Below are positions 10,055 through 11,308 of a DNA stretch of 24,000 nucleotides, one piece after another. Position 1 is the first letter of the stretch. Each line of letters begins with the position of its first letter. Below the pieces are notes generated by a model. That model saw only the letters and a program-made list of their open reading frames with translations. It made no database searches and was not told where the DNA came from. A program made the translations under genes and the position numbers. The stretch is from Nocardiopsis sp. JB363 (GTDB taxonomy: Bacteria > Actinomycetota > Actinomycetes > Streptosporangiales > Streptosporangiaceae), in assembly GCF_900143625.1 (NCBI RefSeq), contig NZ_FRFF01000191.1, positions 430-24,429 of the forward strand. The letters run 5' to 3'.

Positions 10055-11308
10055 TCAGGCGTGCATGCGTCGCAGCGCGTCCATGGCGCTCGCCACCACC
10101 GCCTCGTCGGACTCCCCGGCCAGGGAACGGGCGTGGTCACCGCCGTTGAACCCCAACAGCACCGGTCGTCCGAACGCCTTGTATCCGTTGAGCCACCACG
10201 ACCACAACCCGGGGTCGCGGGGGTCGGACCACTCCAGGACGTCCACGTCGGCCGGCCAGAACACGTGCGGGAACCACAGCCACAACTTGTCCAGCAGCCC
10301 CGACCCGAGAGCGTCGATCGCCTCCCGTTTGGTCTCGGGCAGCGACGGGCGGAACTCCACCGCCCCGGCCTTGAGGAGACCGATCGGCAGCGTCACCACG
10401 CAGTGATCCGCCGGCACGGACTCCCCGCCGGCCAGGTGCGCGACGGTACCGCCGTCGGAATGCTCCACGGCGGTGACCACCGCCCCCGTGCGAACCCTCA
10501 GGTCACCGCGCAGATGGGCGACCAACCCGGCATAGCCGTCGGGCAGCAGCAGGTCACCGCCGCGCCCGCCCACCCCCTCCTCGTCGGCGCTGATGGCCAA
10601 CTCGTGCGGCTCGGCCGCGTACTCCTGGGCGTAGACGGTGTTGGCGGCGTAGCGAAGCGCGGGGGAGGGGTTCTCGGGAAGAAGCGCGGAGATGGGCGTG
10701 GTATCGGCACGGGGGTGCTCGTCCATTCCCTCGACGTACTCCTCCAGCTCCCGGTAACCGGCGGGGTCGGCGCCGGCGACGCTGTCGTAGTCGAACTCGA
10801 TCCGTCGCCCACCGGTGGCCTTGAGCAGCTGGGTGACGGGGTTCCCCTTGTGCCCGTGGATCCAGGAGGCGCCCAGGTCGACGGGCATGTCCTCGGCCCA
10901 TTCCGTCCACGCTCGTCCGCCGACCCGATCACGCGCCTCCAGGACGGTCACCGCCATGCCGGCGTCGGCGAGCGCACGGGCACAACCGAGCCCGGCGAAG
11001 CCCGCCCCCACCACCGTGACACTCTGCCCGCGACGCCCGGTGCGCAGGACCTCCTCGGCCGCGCGCCGCCCGCTCGACAGGGCGCCGGCGGTGGTGGCGG
11101 GCGCCTCGGAGGAGGTGGCCTCACCGGCGAAGTGCAGGCGTGCGCCCACCGGTGCGGCCAAGCGGGCGCGCACCGAGGTGCCCAGCCGGTGCGGGGCCAG
11201 GTAGGAGTACGACCCGAGGGCGTAGGGGTCCCGTGACCAGGAGGTGCGCCGGTAGCGGACCGGTTCGGGCACGGTGGGGGAAGCGTGAGGGGAGTGATCG
11301 GGCGTCAT
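10055..11308 (-). CDS. Flavin-containing amine oxidase (PF01593-like) with apparently circularly permuted segment order
   Basis: Single uninterrupted 417-aa frame, which I checked against the DNA across the junction. The dinucleotide-binding motif [36 protein letters not shown] starts about residue 97. It is preceded by [16 protein letters not shown]...LHFAGEATS...[14 protein letters not shown], which is normally the C-terminal segment of the family. ATG 11308 overlaps the upstream TGA (ATGA). Confidence 0.8.
   Translation of the reverse strand: [417 protein letters not shown]

Follow-up and report, generated by a model that had tools for sequence, protein, structure and literature searches.

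A circularly permuted flavin amine oxidase from Nocardiopsis sp. JB363 and the bacterial family that shares its segment order

Introduction

Flavin amine oxidases such as monoamine oxidase (MAO), polyamine oxidase (PAO) and LSD1 are among the best-studied flavoenzymes. In the PAO/LSD subclade, a conserved lysine (K300 in maize PAO, K661 in LSD1) bridges via a water molecule to N5 of the flavin. The polyamine and spermine oxidases begin with the GxGxxG motif and end with a segment that contains W..DP, GSYS, FAGE and a helix. Here we describe a gene of Nocardiopsis sp. JB363, found in a 24,000-nucleotide stretch of contig NZ_FRFF01000191.1 (referred to as the window), whose 417-residue product carries this last segment first. 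Its best sequence matches among solved structures are maize PAO (1b37), human spermine oxidase (SMOX, 7oxl) and PAOX (5lae), with E-values from 1e-25 to 4e-39 and an identity of about 25%. These enzymes share the motifs for flavin adenine dinucleotide (FAD) and the active-site lysine with the window protein and are also found among its top fold matches.

All solved structures that match the window protein have the Rossmann unit first. In the full-text literature, whose coverage leaves out most subscription-journal papers, we found neither a natural permutation in flavin amine oxidases or the GR2-type FAD fold nor a characterised member of the permuted family. In public databases the permuted proteins carry generic names such as 'FAD-dependent oxidoreductase' or 'flavin monoamine oxidase family protein', and none of the NCBI protein-naming family models reaches its cut-off. 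The permuted bacterial family is large and apparently undescribed.

Results

The segment order of the oxidase is rotated

The gene and its parts are located in the window as follows.

10055..11308, reverse strand: complete oxidase open reading frame (ORF), 417 codons plus TGA, a circularly permuted PAO/LSD-like flavin amine oxidase
11273..11308, reverse strand: codons 1–12, variable and probably disordered N-terminal tail (predicted local distance difference test, pLDDT, below 50 for residues 1–9; ratio of nonsynonymous to synonymous substitution rates, dN/dS, about 1.1)
11039..11269, reverse strand: residues 14–90, the relocated 'C-terminal' FAD-binding segment, assigned from the alignments to LSD2 699–773 and to the spermine oxidase C-terminus
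11024..11038, reverse strand: residues 91–95 (TGRRG), the linker from the old C-terminus to the old N-terminus, assigned from the linker length in the family and from pLDDT
10913..11023, reverse strand: residues 96–132, the Rossmann beta-alpha-beta unit with G101-x-G103-x-x-G106, E124 at the end of beta2 and DRVGGR
10058..10912, reverse strand: residues 133–417, the remaining core with the substrate domain and the other elements of the FAD domain; the last helix spans 401–416 (...DALRRMHA)
10286..10288, reverse strand: K341 in GLLDKLWL, the conserved active-site lysine of the PAO/LSD clade, aligned with the lysine of LSD2 'GIIEKIAL'

The ATG of the oxidase is the first possible start after the upstream stop, and no longer N-terminal extension is possible. 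The profile PF01593 (Flavin-containing amine oxidoreductase) matches the protein with 224.2 bits at a cut-off of 19.8 (E 5e-66). This match is split into three stretches without collinear coverage; PF13450 matches residues 99–163 (E 1.2e-16). The alignment with LSD2 is also non-collinear. Residues 12–87 align with LSD2 699–773, which is the C-terminal segment of LSD2 and comprises its last 75 residues, while residues 75–166 align with the GxGxxG region (LSD2 319–409) and residues 250–361 with LSD2 524–635. Matches to SMOX and PAO chains among the solved structures are likewise non-collinear.

If residues 96–417 are artificially placed before residues 1–95, a single collinear alignment runs through the artificial junction, to residues 253–480 of human spermine oxidase 7oxl and to LSD2 524–773. 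The native termini of the window protein map to a short loop of the canonical enzymes. Its chain stops where canonical relatives run on into "IPEP..W..DP", and the FAD-binding segment with W..DP, GSYS, FAGE.T and G..SG..A is present at residues 24–84, but at the N-terminal side of the protein. The canonical order, with the Rossmann unit first and the FAGE segment last, is thus absent from the native chain, and only rotation restores collinearity. Of the sub-profiles (hidden Markov models, HMMs) for the C-segment and the core, profile positions 1–76 and 1–321, respectively, are covered, each element in one copy. Because the rotated sequence is collinear and the native termini lie in a loop of the canonical fold, we conclude that this flavin amine oxidase is genuinely circularly permuted and that nothing is missing from it. 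The rotation is far beyond chance. The first-pass annotation of this stretch, made from the letters alone, had proposed just such a rotated order for the 417-residue frame, and the alignments bear it out.

The moved segment is conserved and predicted to fold with the core

The nearest relative of the window protein (locus L001, 90% identical) served as reference for dN/dS. We obtain 0.19 for codons 13–95, comprising the moved segment and the linker, and 0.17 for codons 96–417, the core. For the N-terminal tail (codons 1–12) the value is about 1.1, calculated on few sites. In an alignment of 116 homologues, W24, S25, D27, P28, S33-Y34-S35, F60, G62-E63-A64-T65, G75-A76 and G80 within residues 14–90 are invariant or near-invariant. 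In the core, G101, G103 and G106 are invariant columns, and E124 and K341 are each kept in at least 90% of these homologues. Judged by its substitution pattern, the moved segment is part of the translated protein, and purifying selection acts on it as it does on the core.

These data also bear on the position of the start codon. A GTG precedes the Rossmann strand (V97, VTVVGAG...), and translation from there would leave the first 95 codons as an untranslated leader and would yield a truncated, probably dead enzyme. Against this, residues 14–90 contain many invariant or near-invariant columns, dN/dS of the moved segment equals that of the core, and the moved segment holds the FAGE and helix elements needed for FAD binding, modelled with pLDDT above 87. 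The conservation of residues 14–90, together with dN/dS of 0.19 compared to 0.17 for the core, rules out the internal start for practical purposes.

With the alignment of 116 sequences as input, AlphaFold2 predicts the whole chain with a pLDDT of 93.7 and a predicted template modelling score (pTM) of 0.91, and only residues 1–9 are disordered. The pLDDT for residues 14–90 ranges from 87 to 97, and the two blocks of ten residues that span the linker region (residues 81–100) both average 97. In the predicted model the window protein thus has the two-domain fold of amine oxidases. Foldseek finds LSD2 (E 1e-23) and maize PAO as best matches in the PDB with a probability of 1.0, and with a query-normalised TM-score (TMq) of only about 0.70. 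This value is the ceiling to be expected if only the collinear 322 of the 417 residues (77%) can be aligned sequentially. No solved structure in the Foldseek PDB library matches beyond these collinear 77%, that is, none has the permuted topology. Structure prediction and comparison are in line with the rotated order, with a confident fold and top matches limited to the collinear part.

The permuted order is shared by a family in several phyla

Among 5.8 billion proteins searched, more than 110 homologues share 46–90% identity with the query and match 94–100% of its length in one local alignment; their sources are Nocardiopsis, Streptomyces, Amycolatopsis, Nocardia, Crossiella, Nonomuraea and Microbacteriaceae. 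All 116 full-length homologues carry the moved segment ahead of the Rossmann motif, as the window protein does. A profile search over 1.84 billion cluster representatives gives two kinds of matches mixed at similar scores. Permuted proteins match full-length in one stretch; canonical-like proteins match in two, and the part of the profile from the Rossmann unit to the end falls on the protein N-terminus, as in canonical enzymes. Classification of 267 retrieved relatives with the two sub-HMMs for C-segment and core yielded 173 permuted, 90 canonical, 4 partial and 1 multi-copy.

The order is also found at the level of genomes. A query of C-segment, linker and Rossmann unit was used for tblastn over one genome per GTDB species, and about 74 of the 80 best loci from these species-representative genomes gave matches that span the junction. 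These loci belong to actinomycetes, Acidimicrobiia and Solirubrobacterales, including Microbacterium, Cryobacterium and Ilumatobacter, and among the Alphaproteobacteria to Pelagibaca, Henriciella and Denitrobaculum. The Pelagibaca ORF was read and is permuted, with a signal resembling those for twin-arginine translocation (Tat) ahead. One permuted cluster holds proteins of metagenome-assembled genomes of Planctomycetota. Judged from these sequences, the permutation is old and family-wide in Actinomycetota, Alphaproteobacteria and Planctomycetota, and predates the genome of Nocardiopsis sp. JB363 by far.

The segment order is odd a priori, and a chimeric contig or a rotated sequence would be the trivial explanation for it. 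The same order is present, however, in many independent assemblies including chromosome-scale records, among them the 10.5-Mb Amycolatopsis record CP107995.1 and the complete Microbacterium chromosome NZ_CP050453.1. In addition, the frame is uninterrupted and purifying selection extends across the junction. We regard the chance of an artefact of assembly or annotation as negligible.

Permuted proteins are opened at nearly the same site

Canonical sister proteins read '...AM.VLR(T/R)(I/M)(Y/F)G-x-x-(I/V)P(E/D)P....(T/S)(R/N)W..DP' around the site that corresponds to the permuted termini. The canonical loop at this cut site is four residues long in 78 of 90 canonical relatives. Permuted proteins end 0–3 residues past the same helix in 151 of 173 cases, and their folded part begins at the same (V/I)P(E/D)P. 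The end of the window protein, '...DALRRMHA*', is the counterpart of canonical '...VLRTIYG'. The linker from the final helix to beta1 mostly measures 2–5 residues across the family and often ends in 'G-x-x-V', a pattern that is also common just ahead of beta1 in canonical proteins. From these alignments, the uniformity of the cut site across phyla points either to a single origin or to very strong constraint by the structure.

We also note that the exact C-terminus is unconstrained. In L001 (1690–1731), CGA replaces the TGA found at 10055–10057 of the window, and the protein continues for 15 more residues to end in …RRMHARIRGTGPGVRSSPMV.

Relative to a canonical enzyme, the chain is opened in the short loop that separates the helix ending in '...LR(T/R)(I/M)(Y/H)(G/A)' from the strand '(I/V)P(E/D)P..W..DP'. 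What canonically forms the final ~80 residues, comprising the strand, GSYSY, FAGE and the last helix, stands at the front of the chain, and a linker of 2–5 residues connects the old C-terminal helix with Rossmann beta1.

Putative export signals precede the relocated segment in most relatives

A twin-arginine (RR) motif is present in 120 of the 173 permuted relatives (~70%) and in 53 of the 90 canonical ones (about 60%). In 99 of the 173 permuted proteins there is a lipobox-like cysteine in addition to RR, ahead of the relocated segment. In canonical sisters with a twin-arginine signal, the signal stands directly ahead of the Rossmann strand. From these motifs, most members of the permuted family are probably Tat-exported, often as lipoproteins. 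As both canonical sisters and permuted proteins carry export signals, the permutation has kept the N-terminal export signal.

No twin-arginine or lipobox signal is found in the window protein, and there is no upstream start codon that could add one. Codons 1–12 occupy the place of the Tat signal and tether of most relatives and cannot be aligned across the permuted family. The signal-less versions are Nocardiopsis-type sequences, P0001–P0008. With the signal lost and no way to extend the ORF at its 5' end, a cytoplasmic location is probable for the window protein and the Nocardiopsis-type sequences related to it, and the Tat signal was probably lost in the Nocardiopsis lineage. The loss in these eight sequences, window included, implies a switch from an exported to a cytoplasmic enzyme, as predicted from motifs.

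Repeats around the gene are at chance level

The first-pass annotation had further taken the permuted gene for a probable relic of tandem duplication, followed by fusion and trimming. It pointed to HA at both protein ends, to the read-through HA*SREPV after the stop and to a 9-mer, GAACCGGTC, that occurs at 11266..11258 and again at 10048..10040. These sequence facts are correct. Their reading as relics does not hold, since each of them is at chance level. The post-stop copy is listed here as a feature.

10040..10048, reverse strand: post-stop copy of the 9-mer GAACCGGTC, in another frame in L001 and judged to be a chance match

The 9-mer occurs four times in the whole window, and in a region of 1.5 kb exact 9-nt seeds yield 20 direct-repeat families, this one among them; several are longer. 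The pair is not conserved in L001, where GAACCGATC stands at the N-terminal site, a 1-nt indel has shifted the post-stop copy to another frame, and the stop position is CGA and leads to the 15-residue extension. We therefore reject the 9-mer as a relic. HA at both ends is found in 3 of 117 permuted sequences (the window protein and two Streptomyces clusters); shuffling of C-termini among the sequences gives P of 0.16–0.43, and this candidate was rejected as well.

Four exact 9-mers are common to 9948–10054 and 11250–11308, with a post hoc P of about 0.0025 compared to random region pairs. They are P-E-P codons in different frames, and their order is only partly collinear. With a local alignment P of 0.10 for the two regions, which is unremarkable, we treat this cluster as compositional chance.

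A recent duplication in this genome, with fusion, trimming and the HA/HA ends, EPV after the stop and the repeated 9-mer as its scars, would have these sequence facts and the post hoc P-value of the four shared 9-mers in its favour. It would have to explain an order that is common to three phyla with a cut site agreeing within few residues. A six-frame HMM scan of the window detected no second copy of the C-segment or the core, and the genes 3' of the oxidase differ between genera. Since the lineages now sharing the permutation diverged after it arose, and since the downstream genes vary, the flanking non-coding DNA cannot be a scar of the event. A recent local origin is thus extremely unlikely.

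The gentisate-type neighbourhood is specific to the lineage

Further features of the window are the following.

11305..11308, reverse strand: ATGA start/stop overlap with the upstream monooxygenase gene, not conserved (117-nt spacer in L001)
11305..12639, reverse strand: upstream neighbour, 3-hydroxybenzoate 6-monooxygenase-like FAD monooxygenase (NF006021, E 3.9e-108)
12601–13491: divergent IclR/PcaR-type regulator of the gentisate-pathway cluster
13624–14778: cupin dioxygenase of the cluster, gentisate-dioxygenase-like
14775–15599: FAA-family (fumarylpyruvate) hydrolase of the cluster
15599–16351: mycothiol-dependent maleylpyruvate isomerase (MDMPI) of the cluster
16440–18002: DUF885 gene, beyond the cluster
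9265..10014, reverse strand: downstream neighbour, DUF218/SanA-like gene that probably starts with the GTG at 10014 (40 nt beyond the oxidase stop)
22647–22720, forward strand: tRNA gene (Rfam RF00005, 70.8 bits)
22914–22987, forward strand: tRNA gene (Rfam RF00005, 68.7 bits)

The gentisate-pathway cluster (11305–16351) looks complete and sits between the oxidase and the DUF885 gene. The NF006021 match of the upstream gene reaches 362 bits, below the curated cut-off of 459. In Nocardiopsis oceani (L002), the oxidase gene directly adjoins DUF885, which lies upstream; the cluster is therefore either an insertion in the window or a deletion in N. oceani. In L001, the gene that ends ahead of the oxidase aligns by its 3' end with the window hydroxylase, and the 117-nt spacer separates it from the oxidase. 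Comparison of window 11305–11400 with L001 300–432 reveals that ~87 nt of this spacer are missing in the window. The hydroxylase ORF consequently runs into the former spacer, and the ATGA overlap arises.

The gene had also been described in the first pass as translationally coupled to a 3-hydroxybenzoate 6-hydroxylase. The ATGA overlap is real and the identity of the neighbour is plausible; the pairing itself is an accident of gene order. We reject a functional link between oxidase and hydroxylase, as comparison with N. oceani, Streptomyces, Amycolatopsis and L001 reveals adjacency and coupling to be lineage-specific. Across the compared loci, the oxidase has no conserved association with genes of the gentisate/3-hydroxybenzoate pathway. 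Streptomyces and Amycolatopsis members adjoin TetR regulators and, in one case, an aldehyde dehydrogenase, which fits amine rather than aromatic catabolism.

The missing spacer and the missing family-typical Tat signal could both be taken as signs of decay, that is, of a non-functional remnant that lost its export signal and was accidentally fused to a foreign operon. With dN/dS of 0.17–0.19 against the nearest relative and with signal-less versions conserved across the Nocardiopsis-type sequences, we consider this very unlikely. All invariant family residues are present as well, which follows by construction of the list of invariant residues.

Within Nocardiopsis, the adjacency of the DUF218/SanA-like gene to the oxidase is conserved. 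Its mechanically called ORF starts at 10140 inside the oxidase gene, and comparison with L001 suggests the GTG at 10014. Further downstream, a 502-aa ORF (7731–9239, forward strand) has no Pfam match and a tail rich in Pro, Glu and Gln. At its place, L001 and L002 have a 481-aa unannotated gene that is convergent with the DUF218 gene.

Discussion

We consider it highly probable that the ORF is intact and under selection, that it belongs in circularly permuted form to the flavin amine oxidases of the polyamine-oxidase/LSD-like branch, and that the permutation is old and shared. The three-dimensional fold and the chemistry would then equal those of an ordinary amine oxidase. FAD would be held by the GxGxxG unit together with the relocated FAGE/helix segment. 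K341 would sit on the N5 side of the flavin, a role that we presume from LSD1 K661 and maize PAO K300. The C–N bond of an amine would be oxidised to an imine that hydrolyses to the aldehyde, and O2 would be converted to H2O2. Going by its homologues, we expect an FAD-dependent amine oxidase of polyamine-oxidase/LSD type.

Several points weigh against this interpretation or parts of it. FAD binding, activity and substrate class are predicted from homology for every member of the family. The packing of the N-terminal segment on the Rossmann domain is read from pLDDT and pTM of the model, and the Tat and lipobox assignments come from motif matching. With respect to a shared origin, neighbour-joining (NJ) trees of re-rotated sequences give no clean split between permuted and canonical proteins, and this split has a bootstrap support of 0 out of 100. 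The NJ trees require 9–10 Fitch changes (bootstrap range 3–21), and no diagnostic alignment column separates permuted from canonical proteins. Given the unsplit trees and the missing diagnostic column, a single origin is not demonstrated.

The permutation could accordingly have arisen several times independently in the clade, or have reverted, with the loop as the only tolerated cut site. In favour of this, permuted and canonical representatives interleave in the NJ trees, and canonical sisters score as high as distant permuted proteins against the permuted profile. Other observations point the opposite way. The nearest neighbour of a permuted representative is also permuted in 55 of 57 cases, compared to 38% expected, and the Fitch count of 10 is far below the mean of 46 under label shuffling. 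The cut site agrees within few residues and linker lengths are similar throughout. One permuted NJ clade unites the Planctomycetota representative with divergent permuted clusters and not with canonical ones; two of these clusters resemble the Pelagibaca protein. At 35–45% identity, distance trees are weak evidence either way. Taken together, we regard recurrent origin as unlikely, and by a rough estimate a single origin with later horizontal spread is the probable history.

For this single origin, the permutation probably arose in a clade of canonical amine oxidases, many of them Tat-bearing, and would have spread later through Actinomycetota, Alphaproteobacteria and Planctomycetota. Duplication followed by fusion is a reasonable model for the ancient event. 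Since the export signal was kept, a simple history of duplication, fusion and trimming must also account for the loss of an internal signal peptide. Alternatively, the C-segment may have been relocated within the gene. Intermediates with two C-segments were not found among the 267 relatives.

One eukaryotic sequence scores among the best matches to the profile of the bacterial family. This protein, P0123 (XP_034936671.1) of the parasitoid wasp Chelonus insularis, is a 1449-aa 'LOW QUALITY PROTEIN' model with three tandem canonical amine oxidase copies. Possible explanations are a tandem array that gene prediction joined into one model, contamination, or horizontal transfer, and the protein carries no weight as an intermediate.

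The family is a conserved, multi-phylum permuted clade in a well-studied superfamily. It overturns no concept and should be of interest to specialists in flavoenzymes and protein evolution. A natural rotated family indicates that the FAD domain can also be assembled in another order. The cut site is a natural, evolution-tested spot for new termini and a linker, useful for split or permuted oxidases and for biosensors. The family further offers a clean natural test case for how a permutation arises while an N-terminal export signal is preserved. It also exposes a blind spot of annotation, as collinear profile models split permuted proteins into three pieces. We add one conjecture that we hold to be doubtful, namely that this mostly Tat-bearing clade is perhaps the first recognised natural permutation of the GR2-type FAD fold (MAO/PAO/LSD), and that it was perhaps selected, possibly repeatedly, because folding and FAD loading follow another order ahead of Tat export or because the buried Rossmann beta1 strand is freed from a lipid-anchored N-terminus.

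Compared with known systems, the amine-oxidase domain of LSD1/LSD2 (KDM1A/B) provides the top Foldseek and phmmer matches, and the lysine of its 'IIEKIAL' aligns with K341. The LSD enzymes are eukaryotic and multidomain (SWIRM, Tower, zinc fingers) with a collinear oxidase domain, whereas the window protein is a single pair of domains in 417 residues and is permuted. Canonical bacterial sisters (for example P0137, P0148, P0195 and P0200) are found at a Kimura protein distance of ~0.9 to the window protein and reach 345–403 bits against the permuted-family profile. At the junction they read '...LRTIYG-xx-IPEP...', exactly as permuted proteins do at their two ends, but in the sisters the signal peptide leads directly into Rossmann beta1 and the C-segment stands at the C-terminus. 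Natural circular permutants with the same fold, relocated termini and a short linker are known elsewhere, from concanavalin A and favin, saposin and swaposin, and some DNA methyltransferases. The window protein represents the same phenomenon in an unrelated fold.

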